Shown here: positions 542 to 15,803 of the stretch, piece after piece
Layout: each line of letters starts with the position of its first letter
How positions within the stretch are numbered: the stretch's first letter is position 1
IMG/VR virus record: IMGVR_UViG_3300042330_000433
Span: 1-64,000 of that record
Direction: 5' to 3' (one strand)
Length of the DNA: 64,000 nucleotides
Source of the DNA: a virus
Translations under genes and position numbers: made by a program
The notes under the pieces: generated by a model
What the model was told of the DNA's origin: nothing
The model's input: only the letters and a program-made list of their open reading frames with translations
Database searches by the model: none

Positions 542-1331
542 AATGTTAGTTTTAGTCAGTTAGTATTATTGAGGACTCGCAGATTGGTATCTTACTTGTA
601 GAGATTTACTACCATTTAATTAAATTTTATATTAATGAAGATTCATATAATTACCAGTTATATTTCGTGTAGTCTAATACACATATTCTTCAAATTAGCT
701 TGGATTCTCACACCAATAGACAACATAACAGAGAGATTATTTGTTATGTAATTACATATCACGAATCATGTGAAATAGTATAAAGTTATGTAACTTCTAC
801 AACATATTAGGTTGTTTGAAACTGTATGGTTTTATAGTCTGCACTAACTTACAATTACACTTTAACAGAGTGTTTAGTATCTACATTTGCAAAATATTGC
901 TATTATCTGTTAAATAATTGTAGAAATTGTATAGTAGCCCCACATACTTGTCAAGGTTTACTAACCTTAAAGAATGAATAAAAATGCTATTAATATCATT
1001 TGATAATGATGAATGAATGAATGATGATGTGTGTGAATATGTTTGAGTTGGTATAAGCTCACATTTACACTATTAAAATACACAGACAATACGATAAGTT
1101 AATAAAAACAATAGTATAACTCTCTCACAATCAACAATTTAAATCATTTACCAAATGATATTATAAAATAAACTCCAATTAAGTGTATTACCACTCCACA
1201 ATAATTTGTGTTGTATCGAATTAAAGTTTATTAACTAAAAGGTATATTTATACTTTTTTTATATATAGATACGAAATGATCTACCGAGATGTAGACATAT
1301 TGACTACACGCAAAGTAGTCCGCAATAAATT

Positions 1332-2055: not shown

Positions 2056-2072
2056 TAGCTATTAGTAAATAA
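2056..2072 (+). promoter_or_regulatory. 17-bp upstream box, copy 1
   Basis: TAGCTATTAGTAAATAA, 28 bp before the -33 TTTG at 2101. Confidence 0.8.
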
Positions 2073-2100
2073 GAATTTTTTAAAAATAATTGCAAAAACA

Positions 2101-2132
2101 TTTGGAATTTACAAATAAATGTTGTATATTTG
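2101..2132 (+). promoter_or_regulatory. Bacteroidetes sigma promoter
   Basis: TTTG(2101)-N20-TATATTTG(2125). Confidence 0.85.
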
Positions 2133-2136
2133 CACT

Positions 2137-2404
2137 TATTAAAATAAACAGCAACTAGTTTAGGATGCAGTTGCCTTAATTAACAGTGGACACGGCACTG
2201 ACGTATAGTTTTAAGGGGATGGGTTTTGCGAGGTATGACAACTTCTGTAACACTGGCTAGCCAAGAGGACATGATTTAACAAAATCGTGGAAACCTCGTT
2301 GTATCTATTAATTAAATAATTATATAAACTATAATATACGTTATAGTTATAGGAAACTTATATACTTTACCCACTATTTCTTATGATTTAGTGGGTTTTT
2401 TTTT
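2137..2404 (+). ncRNA. candidate structured non-coding RNA, family unknown
   Basis: Bounded by two promoters and a terminator; no convincing ORF; 53/120 GC at 2161-2280; multiple nested stems. Confidence 0.6.
2369..2404 (+). terminator. intrinsic terminator
   Basis: ACCCACTA...TAGTGGGT stem followed by a T run. Confidence 0.85.
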
Positions 2405-2453
2405 GTGTCTAATAATTTATTTTAGGATATTTGTGAAAATAATTGGTAAAAAA

Positions 2454-2485
2454 CTTGTATAATTAAAATATATTTTGTATATTTG
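2454..2485 (+). promoter_or_regulatory. Bacteroidetes sigma promoter
   Basis: CTTG(2454)-N20-TATATTTG(2478), upstream of the endonuclease VII-like gene. Confidence 0.7.
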
Positions 2486-2500
2486 TAAAAAATTATTGAT

Positions 2501-2866
2501 ATGAGAATTTGTAGTTGTTGTAAACAAGAAAAAGAAACAAGTTATTTTAATAAACGTAAAAATGGTTATTATGCTTCTGTATGTACACCATGTTCTGTTG
2601 AAAATTATAGAGAAAAACATTTAATGTCTAAATATGGAATAACATTAGATTATTATGATAAATTATTAGAAAAACAAAATTATTGTTGTGAGATATGTAA
2701 ACATCCAAATAAATCAAAAAGAAGATTATCTGTAGACCATTGTCATATTACAGGAAATGTTAGAGGTTTATTATGTGACACTTGTAATACAGCATTAGGA
2801 AAATTTAGAGATAGTGTTGACTTATTAAATGAAGCTATAAAATATTTAAAAAAATATGAAAAATAA
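2501..2866 (+). CDS. endonuclease VII-family (HNH) homing endonuclease with N-terminal Zn ribbon
   Basis: CxxC...CxxC, KYGITLDYY, QNYCCEIC, LSVDHCHITGNVRGLLCDTCNTALG. Confidence 0.9.
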   Translation: MRICSCCKQEKETSYFNKRKNGYYASVCTPCSVENYREKHLMSKYGITLDYYDKLLEKQNYCCEICKHPNKSKRRLSVDHCHITGNVRGLLCDTCNTALGKFRDSVDLLNEAIKYLKKYEK

Positions 2867-2877
2867 ATCACTTTTTA

Positions 2878-2909
2878 TTAGGATATATCAAAAATATGTT
2901 GTATCTTTG
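2878..2909 (+). promoter_or_regulatory. Bacteroidetes sigma promoter
   Basis: TTAG(2878)-N20-TATCTTTG(2902). Confidence 0.75.
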
Positions 2910-2932
2910 TATAAGATTTAAAATTAGAAGTT

Positions 2933-3124
2933 ATGACATACCAAGAATGGTTCAAACAAATACAATGGTTAAAAGATAAAATAATATTACCTAATAACCA
3001 AACAATATCTAAATCAGATTATATAACTAAAGATGGTTTTGATATAAATAGATTTAACACAATGTTGTTTAAAACATATAATATGTTATACCCAGTTAAA
3101 GATGGAAGAAGATATAAGAAGTAA
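2933..3124 (+). CDS. hypothetical protein
   Basis: 63-aa ORF directly after a promoter. Confidence 0.6.
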   Translation: MTYQEWFKQIQWLKDKIILPNNQTISKSDYITKDGFDINRFNTMLFKTYNMLYPVKDGRRYKK

Positions 3125-3215
3125 TTTATTTACTAAATTACAAAATGGAAAAATAGATTTATATACATTAATACAGATATTAACAAATGATAGAATATAT
3201 ACACGAAAAGATTAG
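3102..3215 (+). CDS. small hypothetical protein (37 aa, not in ORF track)
   Basis: MEEDIRSNLFTKLQNGKIDLYTLIQILTNDRIYTRKD*; overlaps both neighbours and fills the gap between them. Confidence 0.45.
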   Translation: MEEDIRSNLFTKLQNGKIDLYTLIQILTNDRIYTRKD

Positions 3216-3453
3216 ACAAGATTTAATTGTCAACCAAAAAGATTTATTTAACATGCGTCATTACTATACACATAAACATAGAAGTAATGATAGATTATTA
3301 GATGTTAATGTAGGGTTATTTAGAAATGACCAACAAGTATTAACAGCTCAAATATATGTAGCTGATAAGAATACTAAAATAAGAGAACAATTATTTTTAG
3401 ATGAAAACTTTAATATGATTGATAGTAATATAATAATTAAAAGATTAAACTAA
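3187..3453 (+). CDS. hypothetical protein
   Basis: 88-aa ORF in a tightly packed operon. Confidence 0.65.
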   Translation: MIEYIHEKIRQDLIVNQKDLFNMRHYYTHKHRSNDRLLDVNVGLFRNDQQVLTAQIYVADKNTKIREQLFLDENFNMIDSNIIIKRLN

Positions 3454-3755
3454 TGAAAGATTATTTTTTATATAAAAAACAAACCCATAGTATTAATACC
3501 TTAAATGGTATTTTAAATGAAAGCAACTTAGAGTTTGCTAAAAAAACAATGTTATTTGATGTAATTAGAGATTACACAGAACTTGTTAAAACTAAACAAC
3601 ATTATCCACATAATGATATCTCTGATGTAGATATGACAATTGATTGTGTTATAATGACTAGAGATAATTATAATAAGATGATTAAACTTATTCCTGAATT
3701 ACCAGAAGAAAATAAAATTAATGAATTATTAAACTTTCCTAAATTAGACGTATAA
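3453..3755 (+). CDS. hypothetical protein
   Basis: TAATG overlaps at both ends. Confidence 0.7.
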   Translation: MKDYFLYKKQTHSINTLNGILNESNLEFAKKTMLFDVIRDYTELVKTKQHYPHNDISDVDMTIDCVIMTRDNYNKMIKLIPELPEENKINELLNFPKLDV

Positions 3756-4018
3756 TGAGTACATATAAAAAGAATGGTAAAAGGCAACTAGTTGTTAATA
3801 ATAAAAAACAAACTAAGTTACATGTTAAGAAGTTTTATGGTATATTAGCTCAAATGGAAACTATATCTAAAGAGTTAGATCAAACTATAGAATATACAGA
3901 AGATAATATTAATGATTACGTAAAACCTATCTTAGGTAGAGATTTAGACTCTATGGAAAAGTTTTTAGTATTAGGTAAATTACATCATGGAAAAGAAGCC
4001 ACAGATCAACCTTCATAA
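3755..4018 (+). CDS. hypothetical protein
   Basis: TAATG-coupled ORF. Confidence 0.7.
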   Translation: MSTYKKNGKRQLVVNNKKQTKLHVKKFYGILAQMETISKELDQTIEYTEDNINDYVKPILGRDLDSMEKFLVLGKLHHGKEATDQPS

Positions 4019-4277
4019 TATTAAATCTTTTTTAGAAGGAAACGGGCAAAGAGTTTTAGAAGAATTAAAGTTACAACCTAAACATATACAAGAACAAATA
4101 GCATATCGTAGATTACTATGTAAAAATGATTGTGCTGTTCAAAACAAATGTATAAAATGTGGATGTGACTTTAAAGGTAAAACTTCAGTACAACAATCTT
4201 GTAATCCTGAAAGATTTCCTGATTTAATGAGTAAAATAGAATGGGATAAATATAAAGACACAAATGGAATTAATTAA
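3987..4277 (+). CDS. Cys-rich Zn-binding protein
   Basis: RRLLCKNDC...CIKCGC...SC, FPDLMSKIEW. Confidence 0.7.
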   Translation: MEKKPQINLHNIKSFLEGNGQRVLEELKLQPKHIQEQIAYRRLLCKNDCAVQNKCIKCGCDFKGKTSVQQSCNPERFPDLMSKIEWDKYKDTNGIN

Positions 4278-4470
4278 CACATATGTTATAGAAAATAAAC
4301 CTCTTAAAGAGTTACTTGATAATATTGATAAAATAAGTTCTAATATAGAAGTATTTAAAGAAAAACATAAAGGATATAATTATGACATAAAAATTATAAA
4401 TAATGCACAGGATAGTGACTATTTTGATGCTGAAATAAATATAATGTATGAAAAGCAAGAAAACGCTTAG
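4264..4470 (+). CDS. hypothetical protein
   Basis: Overlapping operon ORF. Confidence 0.6.
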   Translation: MELINTYVIENKPLKELLDNIDKISSNIEVFKEKHKGYNYDIKIINNAQDSDYFDAEINIMYEKQENA

Positions 4471-4759
4471 AAACTATACAGAGCTTCTTAAGCATATGAA
4501 ATATTATAATAATCTAGCACCATTCCCTGTGTATGATACAGATTATGTAAATGATGTAGAAAATAAAATTAAAGAAATAATGAATGATAAACTAAAAGAA
4601 TACGATGAAGAGCCAGTGTGGGCATGTAGATTTTGTAAAAAATTACACATTGAATCAGATGAAGTAGGTAATGATGTTTGTATGATATGTGGATCTATTA
4701 ATGAACTACAAGAATATAAAACAATTTTTGAATGGCAAAAAAATAAAAATAATGACTAA
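4448..4759 (+). CDS. Zn-ribbon protein
   Basis: EPVWACRFC...CMICGS. Confidence 0.7.
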   Translation: MKSKKTLRNYTELLKHMKYYNNLAPFPVYDTDYVNDVENKIKEIMNDKLKEYDEEPVWACRFCKKLHIESDEVGNDVCMICGSINELQEYKTIFEWQKNKNND

Positions 4760-5147
4760 TAATAAAGTTGCTAATATTAATGTTAAACTTAAAACTTTAT
4801 TTTTTAAATGGTTAGAACTATTAAAGCCTTGGCATTCATTAAATAATCAACAACAACAAGTATTAGCTCTTTTATTGTATTATCATTATTTATATAAAAA
4901 AGATACAACTAATAATAAAATACTTTGGAAAATTGTATTTGATTATGATACAAGATTAAAAATTGTAGAAGATGAAGTTTTTGAAAAAGGTATGACTACA
5001 AATACTCTAAATAATATATTTACTATATTAAGAAAGAAAGGTGTTATTATAGATAACCAAGTAGCTAGTGTTTATATTCCTGAACTTGAAATAAACAGTA
5101 AAAACTTTAAAGTATTATTCAATTTTAATATAGTTGATAATGAGTAA
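4752..5147 (+). CDS. putative winged-helix DNA-binding protein
   Basis: TNTLNNIFTILRKKGVI recognition-helix/wing pattern; ATG at 4752 preferred over 4689 because of the overlap pattern. Confidence 0.55.
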   Translation: MTNNKVANINVKLKTLFFKWLELLKPWHSLNNQQQQVLALLLYYHYLYKKDTTNNKILWKIVFDYDTRLKIVEDEVFEKGMTTNTLNNIFTILRKKGVIIDNQVASVYIPELEINSKNFKVLFNFNIVDNE

Positions 5148-5424
5148 ACCAGATGATGATAAAGTTAAAGCACTTATACATAGTATAGGTTTAAAACATA
5201 ATTTACAAGATGATGTTATTAAAAAGATAATAGGATCACCTTATAAGTTTACAAGAGATAAAATGGTTGAGTTATCAATTAATGATGACATGACAGAAGA
5301 AGAATATAATAAATTAAAAACAAACTTCATATATCTTTATATAGGAAAGTTATATACTACCTACGATATATGTACTAAATTTTATAAAATAAGAAAAGAA
5401 AGATGGAAGAAAGAAGAAATTTAA
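5134..5424 (+). CDS. HU/IHF-like small DNA-binding protein
   Basis: Two helices followed by FIYLYIGKLY strand; position typical of crAss-like head modules. Confidence 0.5.
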   Translation: MIMSKPDDDKVKALIHSIGLKHNLQDDVIKKIIGSPYKFTRDKMVELSINDDMTEEEYNKLKTNFIYLYIGKLYTTYDICTKFYKIRKERWKKEEI

Positions 5425-5762
5425 ATCAAGATGACGTATTAGACTTAATGCTAAATTTTCCTTTAGAACCAATGTTTAATGGTATTTATATTACAACAAA
5501 TAGAATTGAAGAAGAAGGATTAGAACTAAGTGATTCAGTATTATCAGATGTTCAATATGTAGTAGCTGCAGGTCCTACATCACAAGTCCCAGCAGGACAA
5601 AAAGTATTAATTGATATTGAAAAATTAATGGTTAATTCAAAAGCTGAACAAACTAATGCTTATGAGGCAGTTAAAGAAGTTAAAATTGATTTAATTGAAC
5701 TTAGTAATAATATGTTTGCTCTTGTAACAGATAGAGTAGTTAAAGCTAAAGATAACAGATAA
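5403..5762 (+). CDS. groES: co-chaperonin GroES-like
   Basis: LEPMFNGIYIT, VVAAGP and VPAGQKVL match GroES strands; close to groEL. Confidence 0.7.
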   Translation: MEERRNLNQDDVLDLMLNFPLEPMFNGIYITTNRIEEEGLELSDSVLSDVQYVVAAGPTSQVPAGQKVLIDIEKLMVNSKAEQTNAYEAVKEVKIDLIELSNNMFALVTDRVVKAKDNR

Positions 5763-6328
5763 TGAAATTATTTGAGATGAAAGACTTCTCGCTATTTGTA
5801 ACAGAAGAAGCGTGGGGTCTTTTGCCTTTCAAGGCAATATTAAAACGAGATAAAAGTAGAACTAAAGAAACGGCATTTAAAGAAATGTTATTTATTTATT
5901 ACTTTACAGATATCAGATCTGATTATGTTTATTTAGTAAACGATGCTGAAAGGACTAAAGAAATTATTAAAGATATTGGTTTACCATCAGATTGGAAAAT
6001 AGACCAAGTAATGAAAGATGCTATTGCTTTTTATAACTCAAGATCATTAAGTCCTATTGCTAAGTTATATAAATCATCTTTAAAAGCTGCTGATGATATA
6101 TCTAAGTATTTAGAAATGACAGATGTTTTATTAGCTGAAAGAACAGATAAAGGTGCTACAGTAACTACATTAGCTGTTATTACAGGATCACTTAAATCAG
6201 TTCCTATTATTATGAAAGATTTAAAAGCTGCTTATAAAGAAGTATTAGCTGAACAAAAAGAATTAGAAGGAAGAACTAAAGGAAGTAGAACAATGTCACT
6301 TTTTGAAGATGGTTTAGGAGAACTATAA
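5762..6328 (+). CDS. conserved crAss-like protein upstream of terminase (possible small terminase)
   Basis: RDKSRTKETAFKEMLFIYY motif, helical, located before TerL. Confidence 0.5.
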   Translation: MKLFEMKDFSLFVTEEAWGLLPFKAILKRDKSRTKETAFKEMLFIYYFTDIRSDYVYLVNDAERTKEIIKDIGLPSDWKIDQVMKDAIAFYNSRSLSPIAKLYKSSLKAADDISKYLEMTDVLLAERTDKGATVTTLAVITGSLKSVPIIMKDLKAAYKEVLAEQKELEGRTKGSRTMSLFEDGLGEL

Positions 6329-6870
6329 TGAGGAAAACTAATAATAAATGTGTTTATTTACATAAACGATTAGATAATAATATTATATTTTATGTAGGTA
6401 TGGGTACATTAAAAAGACCTTATAAAACTACAGGTAGAAATATATATTGGAAAAGAATAGTTAGCAAAGTAGGATATTATATTGAAATAATAAAGGAAAA
6501 TTTATCTTGGTCTGAAGCATGTAAATTAGAATGTGATTTAATAAATAAATATCGTTCTGATAATCTGTGTAATATGACCGATGGTGGTGATGGATCAAAA
6601 GGAACTTCACCATCTAAAGAAACAAGATTAAAAATTAGTGAATTTCATAAAAATAAATCAAAATCTAATGAAGCTAAATTAAAAATGTCAAAAGCTAAAA
6701 AAGGATTATATTTATTAGAAAATAATCCTAATTCTAAAAAAGTAATAAACATTAATACAAATATAATTTTTAATACATTAAAAGAAGCCTCTATTTATGA
6801 AAATATGAATTATGGTACTTTTAAGTGGGCAATTAAAAATAAAATAAATTTTAATTACAAATACATATAA
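6328..6870 (+). CDS. GIY-YIG-like homing endonuclease with NUMOD3/NUMOD1 motifs
   Basis: VYLH...FYVGMG, NMTDGGDG, SKETRLKIS, C-terminal HTH. Confidence 0.85.
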   Translation: MRKTNNKCVYLHKRLDNNIIFYVGMGTLKRPYKTTGRNIYWKRIVSKVGYYIEIIKENLSWSEACKLECDLINKYRSDNLCNMTDGGDGSKGTSPSKETRLKISEFHKNKSKSNEAKLKMSKAKKGLYLLENNPNSKKVININTNIIFNTLKEASIYENMNYGTFKWAIKNKINFNYKYI

Positions 6871-8327
6871 TGAAAGAAATATATTTTAAAAATGAAGCTG
6901 AAGAATTATTATTTGGTGGAATACAAAAATTTACAGATGCTATTGCATGTACTTTAGGACCTAATGGTAAAACAGTTATTATAACTGATGAATATGGTAA
7001 ACCTAAAGTTACTAAAGATGGTGTATCAGTAGCAAGAGAAATATCATTTAAAAATGCTGTTGAAAACATTGGAGCACAACTCGTAAAAGAAGTTTGTGAA
7101 TTACAAGTTAAGCAAGCAGGTGATGGAACAACTACAGCTATTGTATTAGCTAATGCTTTTATTCAAAATTTAAAAGGTTTTGAATCTAAAGATATTAACA
7201 AAGCTTTTGATGAAATTATTCCAAAAGTTATTGAACAATTAAAACTTAATTCAAAAGAATTAAAACGTGAAGATATTAAACATGTTGCTACTATATCTGC
7301 TAATAATGACGTACAGATTGGTGACATTATACAACAGGCTTATAACTTTTCTAATATAGTTAAAGCTGAAGAATCTAATAATTTAGAAGATACTCTAGAA
7401 ACTATAGAGGGAATGAAATTAGATGTATCATATATGTCTAAACTGTTTAGTAATACTAGCAAAGAAACCTGCGAGTTTACAAATCCTTATGTTCTTTTAT
7501 TAGATGGAAAACTAGAAGACCTTTTATTATTTAGACAAATACTTGAAAAAATTAGTTCTGAAAAAGAAAATTTACTTATCATTACAGAGTATATTGCTCC
7601 TAAAGAATTACGTAAGTTAGAAACATTAGTTCTTAATAAAAACATTAATGCTTGTGTTATTAAGACACCAGGATTTGGGCCTGTAAGAAAAGATTATCTT
7701 AGAGATTTATCTGACTTTACTGGAGCTGATATTATTGCTGTACAGTCAAACAAATCATACTTACCATCATGTTTAGGTAAGCTTGGTTCATGTGTTATTA
7801 ATAAAAACAATAGTTTACTAATAAAACATGAAGATGTTAATGTAGAAGATATTGTAGATAGTTTAACAAAGCTTTCTAAAAATAAAGAATTAACTGATTA
7901 TGATATAGAAATACTTAATAAACGTATTGCTAATCTTACAGCTAAAGCATCTATTATTAAAGTAGGTGGTGGTTCTGAAATAGAAATGAAAGAACGTAAG
8001 GATAGATATGATGATGCTATATTAGCTGTTGCATGTGCATTAGAAGAAGGAATTGTACAAGGTGGTGGTGAAGCATTAAGATCTATTGTAAATAATCTTT
8101 CAATTTTTAAAAGTGATCTTAATAATAGTATTAGAATATCTTTAACAGCTCCTGTTAATAGAATTATTGCAAATGGTGCAGTATTTAAAAATTCTGATAA
8201 TATGTTTGATGAAAATATTATAGATCCACTTAAAGTAACTAGATGTGCATTATTAAATGCAGTGTCTATAGCTAAAACAGTATTATCAACTGAAACAATT
8301 ATACTTAATGAACGACAATGGAATTAA
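6870..8327 (+). CDS. groEL: phage chaperonin GroEL-like
   Basis: TLGPNG, TKDGVSVA, AGDGTTT, KTPGFG, IKVGG, EEGIVQGGG, IIDPLKV. Confidence 0.95.
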   Translation: MKEIYFKNEAEELLFGGIQKFTDAIACTLGPNGKTVIITDEYGKPKVTKDGVSVAREISFKNAVENIGAQLVKEVCELQVKQAGDGTTTAIVLANAFIQNLKGFESKDINKAFDEIIPKVIEQLKLNSKELKREDIKHVATISANNDVQIGDIIQQAYNFSNIVKAEESNNLEDTLETIEGMKLDVSYMSKLFSNTSKETCEFTNPYVLLLDGKLEDLLLFRQILEKISSEKENLLIITEYIAPKELRKLETLVLNKNINACVIKTPGFGPVRKDYLRDLSDFTGADIIAVQSNKSYLPSCLGKLGSCVINKNNSLLIKHEDVNVEDIVDSLTKLSKNKELTDYDIEILNKRIANLTAKASIIKVGGGSEIEMKERKDRYDDAILAVACALEEGIVQGGGEALRSIVNNLSIFKSDLNNSIRISLTAPVNRIIANGAVFKNSDNMFDENIIDPLKVTRCALLNAVSIAKTVLSTETIILNERQWN

Positions 8328-10564
8328 ACAGGTATCAAACAAAGATAACACCTGAACTAAAAGAAAAGTTACCTAAAGAAGTATATGAAAATTTAATTGA
8401 ATATACATCAACTATTAAGTTTATTAAAAATTTAATAGCACCTGAACATATAAGAGGATTTGCTAAAGATAAACCTAAATCAGATTTATATGATGATGGT
8501 AGAATCCATGTAGATATAACTAATCCTCATATATTAGAGGATATGGATTATTTTAGACAACCTGCTATATTTTTTGAAAAGAATGGTAAGTATACTAATA
8601 TACCACCAAACAGTAATCCTAAATCTGAATATGCTGAATATTGGAAAGAAGAATTACGTAAATGGAAATATGGTATGGTACGTGAATCAGATGGTGAATG
8701 GATTCCTGGAGAGTTATATTTCTATTGGAATTATTCACCTATATGGTTAGTACAAACTATAGCAGTTAGTGGTGCAGGTGAAAGATCTCAAGGTGAACGT
8801 GTTAAGAAATTTGCTAAACCATGGTTAGGTGATTATTTATATTTTCATTATACAGCTAGAGCTAAACGTTTAGGTAAACATGGTAAAGTTCTTAAAACAA
8901 GGGGTATTGGATTTAGTTTTAAAAATGCATCTGAGTCACCTAGAAATATGTATGTGTTTCCAGGTTCAGGTAATCCTAATTTTCATTTAGCATCTGATAA
9001 AGGATTCTTATCTGGAGATAAAGGAATATGGGGTAAAGTACTAGATACTTTAGACTGGATTGCAGAACATACACCATTACCTCGTATGAGAACAATTGAT
9101 GCTACTAAAGAGATGAATATCCAGTTAGGATATAAAGATGAATACGGCTCACGTAAGGGCTTATTATCTTCAGTCTTTGGTATATCATTAAAAGATAATC
9201 CTGATAAAGCTAGGGGTATTAGAGGACCTTTAATTCACTATGAAGAAGATGGTTTGTTTCCTAACTTAGAAAAAGCATGGAACGTTAATAGAAAAGCTGT
9301 GGAAGATGGTGGTGTATCATTTGGATTTATGTTGGCAGGTGGAACAGGTGGTGTTGAAGGAGCTTCATTTGCAGGTTCTGAAAAACTATTTTATAAACCT
9401 GGAGCATATAACATATATGGTATACCTAATATATTTGATAAAGGAGCTAGTGGTGAAAATGAATGTGGTTTCTTTTGGGGAGCGTATTTAAATAGAAATG
9501 AATGTTATGATGAATCATGTGGTGAACCAGATGTTATTAAATCTTTAATAGAAATATTATTAGATAGGCACGAAGTTAAATACAATTCATCTGATGCAAG
9601 AGCTATTACTCAAAAGAAAGCTGAGGAACCTATTACACCTCAAGAAGCTATTATGCGTACTGAAGGTACAGTGTTTCCTGTAGCTGATATAAAAGATTAC
9701 TTAGAAAGTATTGGTCCTAAAAAAGAATCATTTCTTGCAGAACATTATGTTGGAGATATAGTTTATGACAATGCTGGTAATACTAAATGGGAAATGACAA
9801 CTGATAAATATCCACTTAGAGCTTATGATAGTTCTGATACAGATAGAACAGGTTGTTTAGAGATATTTGAAATGCCTAAAAAGAATGCTAATGGTGAAAT
9901 TGCTAGAGGAAGATACATATTTGGTATTGACCCTATTGATGCAGATACAGGAACTTCGTTATTTAGTATAATTGGTATGGATACTTTTACTGACAGAATA
10001 GTTTGTGAGTATACAGGTAGACCTAGATTAGCTAATGATGCTTATGAAACTGCATTACGTATACTAAAATTTTATAATGGTGAAGCTAACTATGAATCTA
10101 ACTTAAAAGGATTATTTAGTTATTTTGATGCTAGAAATTGTTTACATTATTTATGTGATGTACCACAGATATTAAAAGATATGGAATTAGTTAAAGCAAC
10201 TAATTTATATGGTAATAAAGCTAAAGGTACTCATGCTAATAAAGAAATAAATAAATGGGGTAGATTACTTCAAGCACAATATATGTTAACTCAATATAAT
10301 GAAAATGATGAAGAAGATAATAGCTTAAAACTACATCATATTAGAAGTATTCCTTATTTAGAAGAATGTATAGCTTGGAATAGTGATGGTAACTTTGATA
10401 GGGTTTCTGCCGCAGGTATGTTATTTTTATTAAGAGAAGATAGAGTTAAAAGAACTAACTCTATGATAGCTAATCAAAATAATAAAATTAAACAAGCTTC
10501 ACAAGATTCTTTTTTTGAAAAAAATTGGAATAATAATAAACTTAATAACAACTCAATGTACTAA
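8318..10564 (+). CDS. terL: terminase large subunit
   Basis: LKTRGIGFS Walker A-like, YEEDG Walker B, GIDPID and GNFDRVSA RNase H-like nuclease motifs. Confidence 0.95.
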   Translation: MELNRYQTKITPELKEKLPKEVYENLIEYTSTIKFIKNLIAPEHIRGFAKDKPKSDLYDDGRIHVDITNPHILEDMDYFRQPAIFFEKNGKYTNIPPNSNPKSEYAEYWKEELRKWKYGMVRESDGEWIPGELYFYWNYSPIWLVQTIAVSGAGERSQGERVKKFAKPWLGDYLYFHYTARAKRLGKHGKVLKTRGIGFSFKNASESPRNMYVFPGSGNPNFHLASDKGFLSGDKGIWGKVLDTLDWIAEHTPLPRMRTIDATKEMNIQLGYKDEYGSRKGLLSSVFGISLKDNPDKARGIRGPLIHYEEDGLFPNLEKAWNVNRKAVEDGGVSFGFMLAGGTGGVEGASFAGSEKLFYKPGAYNIYGIPNIFDKGASGENECGFFWGAYLNRNECYDESCGEPDVIKSLIEILLDRHEVKYNSSDARAITQKKAEEPITPQEAIMRTEGTVFPVADIKDYLESIGPKKESFLAEHYVGDIVYDNAGNTKWEMTTDKYPLRAYDSSDTDRTGCLEIFEMPKKNANGEIARGRYIFGIDPIDADTGTSLFSIIGMDTFTDRIVCEYTGRPRLANDAYETALRILKFYNGEANYESNLKGLFSYFDARNCLHYLCDVPQILKDMELVKATNLYGNKAKGTHANKEINKWGRLLQAQYMLTQYNENDEEDNSLKLHHIRSIPYLEECIAWNSDGNFDRVSAAGMLFLLREDRVKRTNSMIANQNNKIKQASQDSFFEKNWNNNKLNNNSMY

Positions 10565-10566
10565 AT

Positions 10567-10583
10567 TAGCTATTAGTAAATAA
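10567..10583 (+). promoter_or_regulatory. 17-bp upstream box, copy 2
   Basis: TAGCTATTAGTAAATAA, 28 bp before TTTG at 10612. Confidence 0.8.
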
Positions 10584-10611
10584 AAAAAATTGTGTTATTT
10601 CTTATAAATTA

Positions 10612-10643
10612 TTTGGAATAACACAATTAATTTTGTATATTAG
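10612..10643 (+). promoter_or_regulatory. Bacteroidetes sigma promoter (portal)
   Basis: TTTG(10612)-N20-TATATTAG(10636). Confidence 0.75.
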
Positions 10644-10675
10644 TAAGTTATTAATAAATTTAATATAAATTATAT

Positions 10676-13078
10676 ATGCCAACACCAAGAATAAATAGTA
10701 TTATAATGCCTAGACAGCGTTTGAAATACAGCCAAAAAAATAAAGAATGGCGAAAAGATAATGTGGATCATGCAGATAAACATTCATTCTATAATAATGA
10801 GTATGTTAGGAAAAGTCTTCAAAACAAAGTTATAAATTTAAATTTATATAATGGTATTGTAGATATTAGAGATTTAACAAACGTAGTAAATCCACATCAA
10901 GTAGATGCTTCATTTGTACCTAACAATATTCCACATCACCCTATAATGGTACCAAAGATTGATTTGTTGGTAGGAGAAGAAATTAAACGTAGATTTGATT
11001 GGTCTGTAATTGTTACCAATGCTGATGCTATTAGTAAAAAAGAAGAAGATAAAAAAGCTTTTCTTCAACAAAAACTTACTGAATTTTTAGAGGCTAATTA
11101 TAAAGAAGATGAATTAAAAGTTAAAATGGATGAACTTGCTAAACATATGAAATATAGTTGGCAAGACATTCGTGAAAAAATGGCTAATCAAATTCTTAAA
11201 CATTATAGCCAAGAACAAAGATTTGATAGATTATTTAACGATGGATTTAAAGAAGCTTTAATTTTAGCTGAAGAAATTTATCAGTGTGATATTGTACATG
11301 ATGAACCATATTTAACTAAATTAAATCCACTAAAAGTACATAGTATTAGAAGTGGTAATTCAGATAGAATTGAAGATTCATCTATTATAATTATACAAGA
11401 TCACTGGAGTCCTAATAAAATTGTTGATGTTTATCACGATGAATTAAAACCTGAAGATATTGATTATATTATGGAATATACTCAAACATCATCTAAAGGC
11501 TCTTACTCCGATGATCAAAATAATCACGTTCTTTTACGTGATGCTTTGAACACTGGGGTTGAAGGAATGTATGATACAATCTTTAATTTAGCTGAAATTA
11601 ATGGTCACTTCTTTGGCTCTAACTTTACAGATGATACAGGTAATATACGTGTATTAAAAGTATTTTGGAAATCATTGAAACAAGTATACAAAGTTAAATA
11701 TTATGATGAATATGGAGAAGAACAATATAAAATTGCTTCTGAAGAATATATTCCTAATAAAGATTTAGGTGAAGAATTAACTTCTATGTGGGTTAATGAA
11801 TGGTGGGAAGGTGTTAAGATAGGTAAAGATGTTTATTTAAATATTAAACCTAGAAGAATACAATATAATAAAATTAATAATCCATCATTATGTCATCCAG
11901 GTATTATTGGACAAATATATAATACTACTCAATCTAAAGCAGTATCATTAGTTGATAGATGTAAAAACTATCAATATATGTATGATGTTATTTGGGATAG
12001 ACTTAATAAAGCTATATCTACTAATTATGGTAAAATATTTGAATTAGATTTAGCTAAAGTTCCTGAAAATTGGGAAATAGAAAAATGGTTACACTTTGCA
12101 GTAGTAAATAAGATTGCTGTAATAGATTCATTTAAAGAAGGTAATCAAGGTGCAGCAACTGGTAAATTAGCTGGTGGTTTTTCTGGACAAGGTGGTAGAG
12201 TTATGGATATGGAAACAGGTTCATATATTCAACAACATATCCAGTTACTTGAGTTTATTAAAATGGAAATGGGTGAGATTGCAGGAGTATCTGCACAACG
12301 TCAAGGACAAATTTCTAATAGAGAAACTGTTGGTGGTGTAGAAAGATCTGTTAATCAATCATCTCATATTACAGAGTATTGGTTTATGTTACATGAACAA
12401 TGTAAAATTAGAGTATTAGAATGTTTTCTAGAAACTGCTAAGATTGCACTAAAAGGTAATAATAAAAAAGTACAATATATATTAGATGATCAATCTATTG
12501 AAATTTTAAATTTAGATGCTGATGAATTTTGTGAAAATGATTATGGATTAGTATTAACTTCTAGTTCTAAAACACAAGAGTTAGAATCTATGATTAAACA
12601 AAATGCTCAAGCTTTCTTACAGAATGGTGGAAGTATGTCAACTATTATGGATATATATTTTAGTCCATCTTTATCAGATATGAGAAGAAGACTTGAAGAA
12701 GCTGAAGAACAAACACATCAAAGAAATTCTGAAGCATCTCAACAACAATCTAAAGATGCTCAAGCTGCAATGGCTCAAACAATGGAATTAGAAAATAGAA
12801 AATTAGAACTTGAAGATATAAAAAATCAAAGAGATAATGAAACTAAACGCTATATTGCTGAGTTATCAAATGAGTTAAATGGTGAAGAAGTTTCAGATGA
12901 TGGTATTGTTAATCCTTTAGATGAAGCAAAGTTTCAATTAGATAGTCAAAAAAGAAAAGATGATTATTTACTAAAAATAAAAGCTTTAGATCAAGACATG
13001 ATTAAACATAAAGATCAAATGGAGGCTAAAAAAATAGATCAAAGTATAAATAGAATAAAAAAGAAAAGTACGAATTAG
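10676..13078 (+). CDS. portal protein
   Basis: 800 aa after TerL; PKIDLLVGEE, EWWEGVKIG, GVSAQRQGQI and C-terminal coiled coil, typical of crAss-like portals. Confidence 0.9.
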   Translation: MPTPRINSIIMPRQRLKYSQKNKEWRKDNVDHADKHSFYNNEYVRKSLQNKVINLNLYNGIVDIRDLTNVVNPHQVDASFVPNNIPHHPIMVPKIDLLVGEEIKRRFDWSVIVTNADAISKKEEDKKAFLQQKLTEFLEANYKEDELKVKMDELAKHMKYSWQDIREKMANQILKHYSQEQRFDRLFNDGFKEALILAEEIYQCDIVHDEPYLTKLNPLKVHSIRSGNSDRIEDSSIIIIQDHWSPNKIVDVYHDELKPEDIDYIMEYTQTSSKGSYSDDQNNHVLLRDALNTGVEGMYDTIFNLAEINGHFFGSNFTDDTGNIRVLKVFWKSLKQVYKVKYYDEYGEEQYKIASEEYIPNKDLGEELTSMWVNEWWEGVKIGKDVYLNIKPRRIQYNKINNPSLCHPGIIGQIYNTTQSKAVSLVDRCKNYQYMYDVIWDRLNKAISTNYGKIFELDLAKVPENWEIEKWLHFAVVNKIAVIDSFKEGNQGAATGKLAGGFSGQGGRVMDMETGSYIQQHIQLLEFIKMEMGEIAGVSAQRQGQISNRETVGGVERSVNQSSHITEYWFMLHEQCKIRVLECFLETAKIALKGNNKKVQYILDDQSIEILNLDADEFCENDYGLVLTSSSKTQELESMIKQNAQAFLQNGGSMSTIMDIYFSPSLSDMRRRLEEAEEQTHQRNSEASQQQSKDAQAAMAQTMELENRKLELEDIKNQRDNETKRYIAELSNELNGEEVSDDGIVNPLDEAKFQLDSQKRKDDYLLKIKALDQDMIKHKDQMEAKKIDQSINRIKKKSTN

Positions 13079-13092
13079 CTATTAGCAAATAA
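13076..13092 (+). promoter_or_regulatory. 17-bp upstream box, copy 3
   Basis: TAGCTATTAGCAAATAA (its TAG is the portal stop), 28 bp before TTTG at 13121. Confidence 0.8.
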
Positions 13093-13120
13093 CAAAAAAT
13101 TGAATATTTTTTAATATTTA

Positions 13121-13152
13121 TTTGGAATTATTTATAAAATAGTTTATATTTG
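13121..13152 (+). promoter_or_regulatory. Bacteroidetes sigma promoter (scaffold/MCP)
   Basis: TTTG(13121)-N20-TATATTTG(13145). Confidence 0.85.
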
Positions 13153-13179: not shown

Positions 13180-14256
13180 ATGGAAGAAAATGAAGATTTA
13201 ACATCAATCTTTAGTTCAGCAATGGATTTAAATTTTGATAGTACATATTTTGAATCTGATGAAGATCAAAATGATGAAAACAACAATGATGATTTGGATG
13301 AAGATCCAGAAAAAAATAAAGCTATTGAGGGTGAAGATCCAGAGGACGTAGATAGTGAAGAAGACGATAATAATGAAGGTGATGATTCAGGTGATGAATC
13401 TTCTCCCAACTTATATTCTTCCATCTCTAACGTTCTATTTGAACAAGGTCTATTACCTTCATTAGAGTCTTCTGAAAATATTAAAACAGTAGATGATTTT
13501 ACAAATGCTTTAAAAGTTGAAATTGACACTCAAGCTAAACTAAAAATTGAAGAGCATTTAAATAATTTAGATTTAGAAACAATTGCTACTTCTAAAAAGC
13601 AAATTCTAGATTTAGATAAAATTGATGAAGATTATTTAAAAGATAATCTTGAAGTTGCAAAAGATATTATTTTTAGAGATTATGTAAATCAAGGACTATC
13701 TGAAGATAGAGCTAAAAAAATGTTAAGAAAGACTATTGATTTAGGTGAAGACATTTTATTAGAAGATGCTTTAGAATCTAAAGAAAGTTTAAAAGCATTT
13801 GAAAATAAACAAATAGCTCTTGAATTACAACGAGTAGAGCAAAACAAAATTAATCAAGCTAGAGAACAAGAAAAAATTGATAATTCAATTAAACAATTTA
13901 TTTTTGAATCTAAAGAAGTAATTAAAGGAATACCTAATACTAAAGCAATTAGTGATAAAGTATTCAAGACAATGACTGAAGTTGTTAGTAAGAATCCTGA
14001 AACAGGTGAATTAGAAAACAAATTCATGAATGAAAGATCTAAAGACCCAATTCGATTTGATACAAAAATGTATTACTTATATGAATTAACAAATGGTTTT
14101 ACAGATTTAAGTAAAATAAAAACAACAGTTAAATCAAGTGCTACTAGAGATCTAGAAAAAGCATTAAGAAAAACTAAGTTTGAAGATAATGGACAACCAG
14201 GTTATTTAACAGATCCTAATAGTTACTCAGGTGGATTTGGAAGTGAGTTGGTTTAA
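13180..14256 (+). CDS. putative capsid scaffolding protein
   Basis: Very acidic N-terminus, coiled coil, between portal and MCP; the track's TTG start at 13150 lies inside the -7 box, so ATG 13180 is used. Confidence 0.75.
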   Translation: MEENEDLTSIFSSAMDLNFDSTYFESDEDQNDENNNDDLDEDPEKNKAIEGEDPEDVDSEEDDNNEGDDSGDESSPNLYSSISNVLFEQGLLPSLESSENIKTVDDFTNALKVEIDTQAKLKIEEHLNNLDLETIATSKKQILDLDKIDEDYLKDNLEVAKDIIFRDYVNQGLSEDRAKKMLRKTIDLGEDILLEDALESKESLKAFENKQIALELQRVEQNKINQAREQEKIDNSIKQFIFESKEVIKGIPNTKAISDKVFKTMTEVVSKNPETGELENKFMNERSKDPIRFDTKMYYLYELTNGFTDLSKIKTTVKSSATRDLEKALRKTKFEDNGQPGYLTDPNSYSGGFGSELV

Positions 14257-14297: not shown

Positions 14298-15803
14298 ATG
14301 AGTTTAGGAAAGTATGTAATGACCAAAGGTAAAGCATGGTCAGGTTTAACACTAAAAAATCACATCGGTGCAATTTTTGGATTACAACCACAATTAGTTT
14401 CACCATTAACAACTGTGTTGTTACAAAGCTCTGGAATGAAAAATTTAGATACAACATTATCTATGTTCCCAGAAAAAGTTTTAAACAGTGCGGATGATTT
14501 TGTATGGAAAGTAGTAGGTAGTGATGAAAGAAATATACCACTTGTTGAAGCAAGATTTCAAGGCGCAGTAGTTACTTCAAGTACAACTGGTGTTGGTCAA
14601 GCTAGAACACAATTCCAAATGGTATTTGGAGAAAAATGGTTTACTAAAATGCATGTTATTGCAGGTCCTAGACCAGATGTATATCAAATTAGAATTTTAG
14701 AAGATGCTTTTGAAGAAGGATCATTGTATGTTTATAACTGTGAAGTATGGGGTGGTCAAGAATCACTTGCTGGTATTCCTGGAGATGAACTTGTAGGTGG
14801 AAATAGATTTAGTATTGAATCTGCATATTCTGAAGATGAACTTTCTATTCAAGGTGCTGGAATTCAATTTACTTCACCTTACTTAATGAGAAACTCAGTT
14901 TCTACATTACGTATGGAACATAAAGTTTCTGGTGCAATGATTGATTGTAAAGTAGAACCAGTTTATTTTGCTGGTATTGAAACAAGAGATCCTAACACAG
15001 GTAAAGTACATAAGTCTACAACTTGGATGCAAGAAGTTTACTGGCAGTTTGAAAAATCATTTTCACGAATTAAATCTCGTACAATCATGTTTGGTAAAAC
15101 AAACCGTGATGAAAATGGTGGATATTTAAACGTTGGTGCATCAGGTATCAAAATTAAAGCAGGTTCTGGTATTAGAGAACAAATGGAAGTTTCAAATACA
15201 ATTACGTATAACTTCTTCTCAATGCGTTTACTTGAAGATGCTCTTTCAGAATTATCAGAAGGTAAATTAGATTTCTCTGAACGTAAATTTATGTTACGTA
15301 CAGGTGAAAGAGGAGCTGCTCAATTTAATAGAGCTGCTACTGCTGCTGCTTCTGGTTGGAAATCATTATTTGATAATACCAATCAAAATGCAATCAATAA
15401 AGTACAATCTAAATTCCATGAAAATGCATTTAAAGGTGGATTCCAATTCACTGAATGGTTAGCACCTAATAACATTCATATTATGTTAGAGGTAGATCCA
15501 GCTTATGATGATAAAGTTCGTAACAAAATTTTACATCCAGATGGTGGAGTTGCTGAATCTTACAGATATGATATTCTTTACATTGGTTCAATGGAAGAGC
15601 CTAACATCCAAAAAATCAAAGTTAAAGGCGATGATGAATTGAGAGGTTATATGGCAGGTATTAGAGATCCATTTTCTGGACGTAGAGGTGGAATCATGCA
15701 ATTAATGGAAGATAGTGCTACTATGACAGCTATGTGTGGTACAGGAGCGATGGTTAAAGATCCTTCTAGAACACTAACTTTCAAACCAGCATTGTTAGAT
15801 TAA
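14298..15803 (+). CDS. major capsid protein
   Basis: 501 aa, position after scaffold, GSGIREQ and LRTGERG motifs, followed by a terminator. Confidence 0.9.
   Translation: MSLGKYVMTKGKAWSGLTLKNHIGAIFGLQPQLVSPLTTVLLQSSGMKNLDTTLSMFPEKVLNSADDFVWKVVGSDERNIPLVEARFQGAVVTSSTTGVGQARTQFQMVFGEKWFTKMHVIAGPRPDVYQIRILEDAFEEGSLYVYNCEVWGGQESLAGIPGDELVGGNRFSIESAYSEDELSIQGAGIQFTSPYLMRNSVSTLRMEHKVSGAMIDCKVEPVYFAGIETRDPNTGKVHKSTTWMQEVYWQFEKSFSRIKSRTIMFGKTNRDENGGYLNVGASGIKIKAGSGIREQMEVSNTITYNFFSMRLLEDALSELSEGKLDFSERKFMLRTGERGAAQFNRAATAAASGWKSLFDNTNQNAINKVQSKFHENAFKGGFQFTEWLAPNNIHIMLEVDPAYDDKVRNKILHPDGGVAESYRYDILYIGSMEEPNIQKIKVKGDDELRGYMAGIRDPFSGRRGGIMQLMEDSATMTAMCGTGAMVKDPSRTLTFKPALLD

Follow-up and report, generated by a model that had tools for sequence, protein, structure and literature searches.

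How does a crAss-like phage direct the host RNA polymerase to its head genes late in infection, and is a short sequence placed far upstream of the head-gene promoters part of the answer? The question is posed by the first 64 kb of the 92,212-bp IMG/VR record IMGVR_UViG_3300042330_000433 (this whole stretch is referred to here as the window), DNA of a crAss-like phage with 25% G+C whose gene order is syntenic with that of Cellulophaga phage phi14:2 (Steigviridae). The order common to both is small open reading frames (ORFs), a GroEL-like gene, terminase, portal, a gp092-like gene and the major capsid gene. Three promoters of the window are preceded by an invariant box, the core of which recurs at a nearly constant distance from promoters of relatives. 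Comparison of these sequences tips the balance, by no means decisively, toward the box being a DNA site for a regulator of late promoters that are used by the host RNA polymerase, and this is the reading preferred here.

The box and its promoters in the window

The 17-mer TAGCTATTAGYAAATAA is found exactly, and always on the + strand, at 2056-2072, 10567-10583 and 13076-13092, as an initial annotation of the window had it, and the entire 92,212-bp record holds no further copy with two or fewer mismatches (with up to three mismatches there are 9 matches, against 3.7 expected from shuffles). Every copy is followed by exactly 28 bp and then by TTTGGAAT, at 2101, 10612 and 13121; after a further 12 nt comes TATATT[T/A]G, 20 nt past the TTTG, at 2125, 10636 and 13145. 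This geometry, too, had been described initially and is confirmed at the three sites. TTTG at -33 and TAnnTTTG at -7 constitute the layout of Bacteroidota promoters. The three sites of the window have these two elements at the 19-21 nt separation that defines the Bacteroidota σA type, and a logo of 85 sites from relatives agrees.

Copy 1 (2056-2072, core GCTATTA at 2058-2064) belongs to a tandem arrangement. The promoter that it precedes (2101-2132, +; -33 element TTTGGAAT at 2101-2108, -7 element TATATTTG at 2125-2132) fires into a conserved non-coding RNA. A box-less promoter, 94 bp farther upstream (2007-2038, +), consists of A-tracts, TTTGGAAT and TATCTTTG and is of the type described as 'middle' in phi14:2. 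The box is located 11-27 nt past the likely start of this first promoter, that is, at about +11 to +27 of the first transcript. (The same layout, a box-less promoter followed by a box promoter, as at 2007-2072, recurs in the relative L121.) Such a tandem could work as a promoter switch.

Copy 2 (10567-10583, core 10569-10575) begins 2 nt past the stop codon of the terminase gene (8318-10564, +) and precedes the promoter of the portal gene (10676-13078, +). This promoter (10612-10643, +) has TTTGGAAT as its -33 element (10612-10619) and the non-consensus TATATTAG as its -7 element (10636-10643). Copy 3 (13076-13092, core 13078-13084), the first three bases of which are the portal stop codon, precedes the promoter (13121-13152, +; -33 element 13121-13128, -7 element TATATTTG at 13145-13152) of the gp092-like gene (13180-14256, +) and the major capsid gene (14298-15803, +).

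A fourth, degenerate module is found at 2834-2909 (+). Its box, GCTATAA (2834-2840), is inside the end of an endonuclease VII gene and 68 bp before a -7 element TATCTTTG (2902-2909), with a -33-like TTAG at 2878-2881. The module precedes ORF 2933, and its ortholog in relatives is the site at the operon start (J0, see below). The statement that six other promoters of the window lack the box is borne out in part: two clear host-type promoters, at 2007 and 42530 (the only clear box-less ones confirmed), are without it.

A conserved core at a fixed distance

For comparison, 80 IMG/VR contigs with a portal identity of 45-97% were used; about 100 distinct sites with a conserved box come from about 90 related contigs and phi14:2. 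What is kept in relatives is a 7-bp core, GCTAT[T/G][A/G], with an A-rich 5' flank. The 17-bp identity is local to this phage; only 7-9 of the 17 bp are under general selection, and the 17-mer as a functional unit, as first proposed, is to be given up. It was on conservation of position in relatives that the initial proposal had been staked, and position is indeed kept: the distance is 67±1 bp in about 100 distinct sites, phi14:2 included. Counted from the start of GCTAT to the first T of the -7 element across 112 distinct sites, it amounts to 67 bp in 85 cases, to 68 bp in 15 and to 66 bp in 2; when promoters rather than boxes are taken as the anchor, the box is found at -67±1 in at least 99 of 111 distinct junction promoters. 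The 85-site logo consists of four blocks, AA..GCTATTA[G/C], AAAAT at +26 to +30, TTTGGAAT at +44 to +51 and TATATTTG at +68 to +75, and the sequence between the blocks carries little information. Conservation, geometry and distribution of the box are in this sense directly observed.

The distance is also kept where the terminase reading frame crosses the box and ends 28-41 bp before the -7 element (L035, L049, L057-L064, L066-L074). Persistence of the spacing inside coding sequence implies that the box goes with the promoter rather than with the stop codon. The centres of the box and of the -33 element are 41.5 bp apart, or about four helical turns. A site of class I type, such as that of CAP at -72.5 or that of phi29 p4, is located upstream of the -35 element, on the same face of the helix and at a fixed distance, and this is the arrangement found (67±1 bp; 41.5 bp).

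The core is not the same in all lineages, and the manner in which it changes is informative. The variant GCTATG[G/A] is present at both junctions of one genome; in the clade of L066-L074 and G010, AACGCTATG[G/A][G/A]CG is found at both junctions, and the clade of L051-L055 and G007 has the boxes GCTATAGG and GCTATGGT. On a tree of a linked protein, the change at T6 has arisen in at least four independent lineages. Because separate boxes within one genome change in concert, these sequences suggest a co-evolving factor that acts in trans. In the gut relatives cr111, cr126, DAC15 and crAss001 the corresponding position, 68 bp before the -7 element of the portal promoter, is occupied by ATTTAG (in crAss001, inside the coding end of the terminase gene); in IAS virus ATTTAG precedes the -7 element by 58 bp, one helical turn less. 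In the gut Asinivirinae (L123-L127) the box has the form ATTTAG[T/G]AAA, usually directly past the stop codon of terminase; often the next feature is an inverted repeat extending across the -33 element.

Box promoters and middle promoters of phi14:2

Transcription has been mapped in phi14:2. According to the text of that study (Drobysheva et al., bioRxiv 10.1101/2020.03.07.982082), transcription of early genes is due to the virion polymerase, and middle and late transcription is rifampicin-sensitive, that is, the work of the host RNA polymerase. An extended tripartite motif is described there for the middle promoters P070, P075, P108 and P110, and similar motifs are noted upstream of portal and gp092 homologues in other crAss-like phages. 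The host-type -33 and -7 elements and the phage family are those of the window; the tripartite motif, as the text gives it, is made up of a -35-like block, a -10-like block and one further block, and does not comprise a far-upstream box.

The phi14:2 genome contains AACGCTATTAAAA exactly twice, at the terminase/portal and portal/gp092 junctions, with the spacing GCTATTA-N36-TTTG of the window. Inspection of the sequences of the four mapped middle promoters (P070, P075, P108 and P110) reveals no GCTAT at -67±1. In phi14:2 the presence or absence of the box thus sets the two late head-gene promoters apart from the middle promoters that have been mapped. Middle-type promoters are represented in the window at 2007, 2868 and 42530. 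The three parts of the motif (-35-like, TCAAAT-like spacer, -10-like) are all present at 2007, 2101 and 2868, with GTCAAT, TACAAAT and ATCAAAA as the respective spacers; the spacer block is missing from the portal and gp092 promoters.

DNA or RNA

Many of the sites have inverted repeats between the box and the -7 element, the sequence of which varies among junctions and phages. At copy 2 of the window the arms of the repeat are 12 bp long (10588-10599 and 10617-10628) and its loop contains the -33 element; the + strand RNA has a folding energy of -15 kcal/mol and leads into a T-rich stretch. Among 102 sites, 45 fold at -12 kcal/mol or lower, and about 40% have a z below -3 relative to shuffles; window copies 1 and 3 are not among the latter. 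The strand preference of these structures is observed directly: the + strand RNA folds better in 43 of the 45 strong cases, G-U pairs account for 97 of 992 on the + strand and 14 of 873 on the - strand, and the mean strand difference is -3.0 kcal/mol, compared with -1.6 in shuffles. The stems are AT-rich with large loops; many run from the box to a point 1-12 nt short of the -7 element, with 4-7 T in the next 10 nt.

These properties raise the possibility that the box works in RNA, as a single-stranded signal or as the 5' foot of an intercistronic terminator or processing element of the upstream messenger, with a nuclease or termination factor recognising it and the hairpin setting the distance. 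Strong hairpins at some 40% of sites, their + strand bias with its many G-U pairs, stems that reach from the box to just short of the T-rich -7 element, and an upstream stop codon that usually abuts the box would all agree with such a role. It is nevertheless quite unlikely. About 60% of sites, copies 1 and 3 of the window among them, are without a significant hairpin, and conservation of the box greatly exceeds that of any sequence with which it could pair. When the columns of 85 aligned sites are compared for pairing in a fixed register, no diagonal is prominent; lacking a common register, the hairpins are site-specific, and being facultative, they do not explain the box. (Pairing of the box with an AATAG just before the -7 element was considered and is confined to a subset of portal/gp092 junction sites, so it cannot account for conservation of the box.) The exact distance, moreover, refers to a DNA element of the promoter. 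Lastly, in L284 and L425 the J0 box has no co-directional gene or promoter upstream, which means that it is not part of a + strand transcript there.

We therefore favour action of the box at the level of DNA rather than RNA, on the strength of its exact distance from a DNA promoter element, its persistence without a hairpin, and the J0 boxes of L284 and L425. The hairpins are read as terminator-like or stabilising structures of the upstream mRNA, which occupy the only unconstrained DNA of the unit. A boxA- or nut-like function was also considered and set aside: the rRNA leader and spacer of a Flavobacterium share GTTC.T.GACATATTGA, which is unlike GCTATTA, and placement in a transcript past a promoter, as in the λ nut sites and boxA, does not apply at J0 of L284 and L425.

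Phage or host factor

If the box is a DNA site, its ligand might be the host RNA polymerase itself, with the α C-terminal domains contacting it as a far-upstream UP-like element, or a conserved host DNA-binding protein, and no phage factor would be called for. The core promoter is purely of host type, the conserved AAAAT at about -52 resembles an UP subsite, and the core of the box is stable across phages that probably infect different Flavobacteriia, all of which would fit. On the other hand, α-domain sites are A/T-rich and do not contain GC, and the box is absent from the Flavobacterium rRNA promoters that were examined. When the full pattern is used to search viral contigs, 34 of the 78 matches listed are true modules, all in crAss-like contexts; among the 80 cellular-genome matches listed, no module is found. 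The concerted change of the box in phage lineages, together with ATTTAG in the gut phages, also fits a co-evolving phage factor better than a host contact, which we consider unlikely. Pattern scans and concerted variants taken together lean toward a phage factor.

Candidate regulators

Which phage protein might this be? The initial annotation had named a winged helix-turn-helix gene, an IHF-like gene and a zinc-ribbon gene as candidates. The first of these, at 4752-5147 (+), encodes a conserved 131-residue protein (g098 in phi14:2, gp13 in crAss001) with homologues in all 15 genomes tested, encoded in the operon upstream. The model of this family (predicted local distance difference test score, pLDDT, 88) consists of a helix followed by a β-hairpin and is winged-helix-like; in exhaustive structural alignment the matches with Z of 6-7 are nearly all winged-helix DNA-binding domains, and gp13 of crAss001 is annotated as a 'VpsT-like transcriptional regulator'. 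This agrees with the early assignment of the gene.

The second candidate, at 5134-5424 (+), is a conserved small protein (g097 in phi14:2; the crAss001 homologue gp14 is annotated as 'protein HU'). Its model has a pLDDT of 62 and is uninformative with regard to an HU/IHF-like fold, and PF00216 (HU/IHF) is not found in the genome. Pfam and PHROGs searches with 20 small ORFs yield nothing for either candidate, nor does a profile search of solved structures yield anything useful for the two families. On the basis of its predicted structure, the winged-helix protein may be regarded as a weak but reasonable candidate for the box factor.

Targets of the box

A whole-genome pattern scan of 12 complete relatives and phi14:2 finds about three box sites per genome; the reversed pattern, serving as control, finds about none. 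The three usual sites are the two head-gene junctions and the start of a long rightward operon (J0). At J0 the promoter corresponds to the middle promoters of phi14:2, being composed of TT[T/A]GGA, a ..CAAAT-like spacer block and TATCTTTG. Two J0-type units are present in the window: the one at 2058 drives the conserved non-coding RNA, and the degenerate one at 2834 precedes ORF 2933. Since the targets of the box include a non-coding RNA, the start of a long operon and homing-endonuclease genes, the term 'procapsid regulon', under which the three promoters had been grouped, is too narrow and is not retained.

The non-coding RNA (about 2140-2404, +) is G+C-richer and is conserved directly after the J0 promoter in L119, L120 and L321; a different structured-looking RNA takes the same position in L114, L121 and L284. 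Rfam has no family for either type of RNA downstream of J0 promoters, in the window or in relatives.

Free-standing homing-endonuclease genes accompany some box promoters. Box-promoter units are found ahead of GIY-YIG genes in L095 and L251 and directly behind HNH or endonuclease VII genes in L114, L120 and at 2501-2866 of the window. The window contains two such genes, of the endonuclease VII type (2501-2866, +) and of a GIY-YIG-like type with a NUMOD3 motif (6328-6870, +), both inserted among conserved genes of the operon upstream of terminase. In L095 (G004:61485-64558, -) the box promoter drives the GIY-YIG gene right after a G+C-rich stretch that resembles a group I intron core; an Rfam search of this stretch gives no match at E up to 0.01. 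Endonuclease genes directly before or after box-promoter units (window 2501-2866; L095, L114, L120, L251) are what might be expected if the box were nothing but the boundary of a mobile promoter cassette, comparable with promoter-stem-loop (PeSL) elements of T4-type phages, used in recombination or by homing endonucleases and devoid of any role in transcription. That a boundary should be held within 1 bp of its distance to the -7 element at orthologous junctions that are not mobile, over deep divergence and even within coding sequence, and that only three or four copies should exist per genome, makes this explanation highly improbable.

The box promoters differ in their core elements. The -7 element is non-consensus (TTAG, TTGT or TTTA) in 29 of 39 portal promoters; the -33 element of J0 promoters is mostly TTAG; gp092 promoters are consensus. 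The weak cores, judged by their sequence, would fit a partial dependence on an activator, which they do not prove. The opposite sign of regulation has also been considered: a negative factor bound to the box, as a roadblock or silencer, would hold back these promoters, or transcription that reads through from upstream, until the late phase. A number of box promoters have consensus cores and are nonetheless late in phi14:2, and in the window and in G001 the box is just past the start of a box-less promoter. A site at about -76 is, however, outside the polymerase footprint of its own promoter, and spacing exact to 1 bp with same-face phasing is typical of recruitment and not of repression, so that a purely negative function appears decidedly improbable.

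Some features of the window stand apart from the box. A full-length match to the Hatchet ribozyme (RF02678; 75 bits, gathering score 51) is located at 824-974 (-), in an ORF-free region to the left of divergent promoters. The phage encodes a GroEL-like chaperonin (6870-8327, +; Cpn60_TCP1, E 9e-46), and upstream of it a small protein (5403-5762, +) in the position of the 'putative 10 kDa chaperonin' of crAss001.

A proposed mechanism

The initial annotation had also proposed a site for a late regulator acting on the host RNA polymerase. Spacing, concerted change and the restriction to late promoters in phi14:2 speak for this proposal, in which the factor, activation and its timing are putative for this phage. 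In the scheme that follows we infer that a protein binds, which way it regulates and which protein it is. The promoter would be a four-block structure, with the box outermost at about -79 to -73, AAAAT at about -54 to -50, TTTGGAAT at -33 and TAnnTTTG at -7. The box would act as double-stranded DNA and be bound by an asymmetric, probably monomeric, sequence-specific protein, most likely made by the phage and expressed from the preceding operon. The bound protein would share a helix face with the -33 element, some four turns upstream of it, and would help the σA RNA polymerase of the host to use box promoters in the late phase of infection, much as a class I activator or phi29 p4 does. At 2007/2101 it would find itself just past the start of the box-less promoter and could act as a switch between the two promoters. 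The hairpins would be a separate layer: structures, terminator-like or stabilising, in RNA that reads through from the upstream gene, placed in the only space that is free.

Several observations weigh against a phage-encoded late activator at the box. The gp092 promoters, at the portal/gp092 junction, have consensus -33 and -7 elements and may not need an activator. The box is the 5' foot of the stem in 30 of the 45 strong hairpins, so that a role in RNA is conceivable. The scan of cellular genomes, with no module among the 80 matches listed, was made without a shifted-spacing control and is weak. For the winged-helix candidate, Z values of 6-7 are middling, Foldseek finds no match to the model, and of the residues that might track the box type in four independent lineages the best column (4/4 versus 6/41) is not significant after multiple testing. 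Finally, the text of the phi14:2 paper does not mention a far-upstream box, and an earlier description of it is possible.

A broader proposal can be formulated, and it is a speculative one of which we are doubtful: that the box and the winged-helix protein (4752-5147; g098; gp13) constitute the late-gene switch of Steigviridae crAss-like phages, and represent a new family of far-upstream activators for Bacteroidota σA RNA polymerase. The box would have co-evolved with its protein (GCTATTA, GCTATGG and, in the gut, ATTTAG), and the unit would be fused to an RNA terminator in such a way that, at each head-gene promoter, the transcript from upstream is terminated and a new, controlled one is begun.

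Relation to known systems and implications

A close parallel is p4 of Bacillus phage phi29, a small phage protein that binds at about -82 (centre) at the late A3 promoter of the host RNA polymerase and activates it through the α subunit, meanwhile shutting a neighbouring early promoter. This arrangement resembles the 2007/2101 tandem of the window. The differences are that p4 is a dimer that binds an inverted repeat, bends DNA and activates a promoter without a -35 element; here the box is asymmetric and the -33 element is present. Mu C and Mor, P2 Ogr and T4 MotA are alike in that one dedicated phage factor recognises one short box at a fixed distance in a few promoters. Their boxes, at -30 to -55, replace or overlap a missing -35 element, in contrast to a box that is some 40 bp upstream of an intact -33 element. 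(The N-domain of T4 MotA is a weak structural match of the candidate model, with Z 6.1, which is not evidence of kinship.) The PeSL cassettes of T4-type phages are similar as compact units of stem-loop and promoter that recur between genes, next to mobile or variable genes; they are early promoters, repeated many times in hyperplastic regions, unlike the three or four copies at fixed orthologous core-gene junctions found here. The design of the box is in this sense a familiar one (phi29 p4, class I activation), encountered in a phage group in which, to our knowledge, no late regulator has been recognised.

In Bacteroidota, few phages are as abundant as the crAss-like ones. Their early transcription by the virion polymerase is understood, and to the question of how host RNA polymerase is targeted to the head genes late in infection the box offers a precise handle. 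Attention to the box improves the annotation of promoters and operons in this group and explains why homing-endonuclease genes insert just outside it. Strictly placed, 7 bp long and present at two late promoters of the culturable phi14:2, for which a purified host polymerase, transcription in vitro and RNA data over a time course are already available, the box makes the late switch directly testable.

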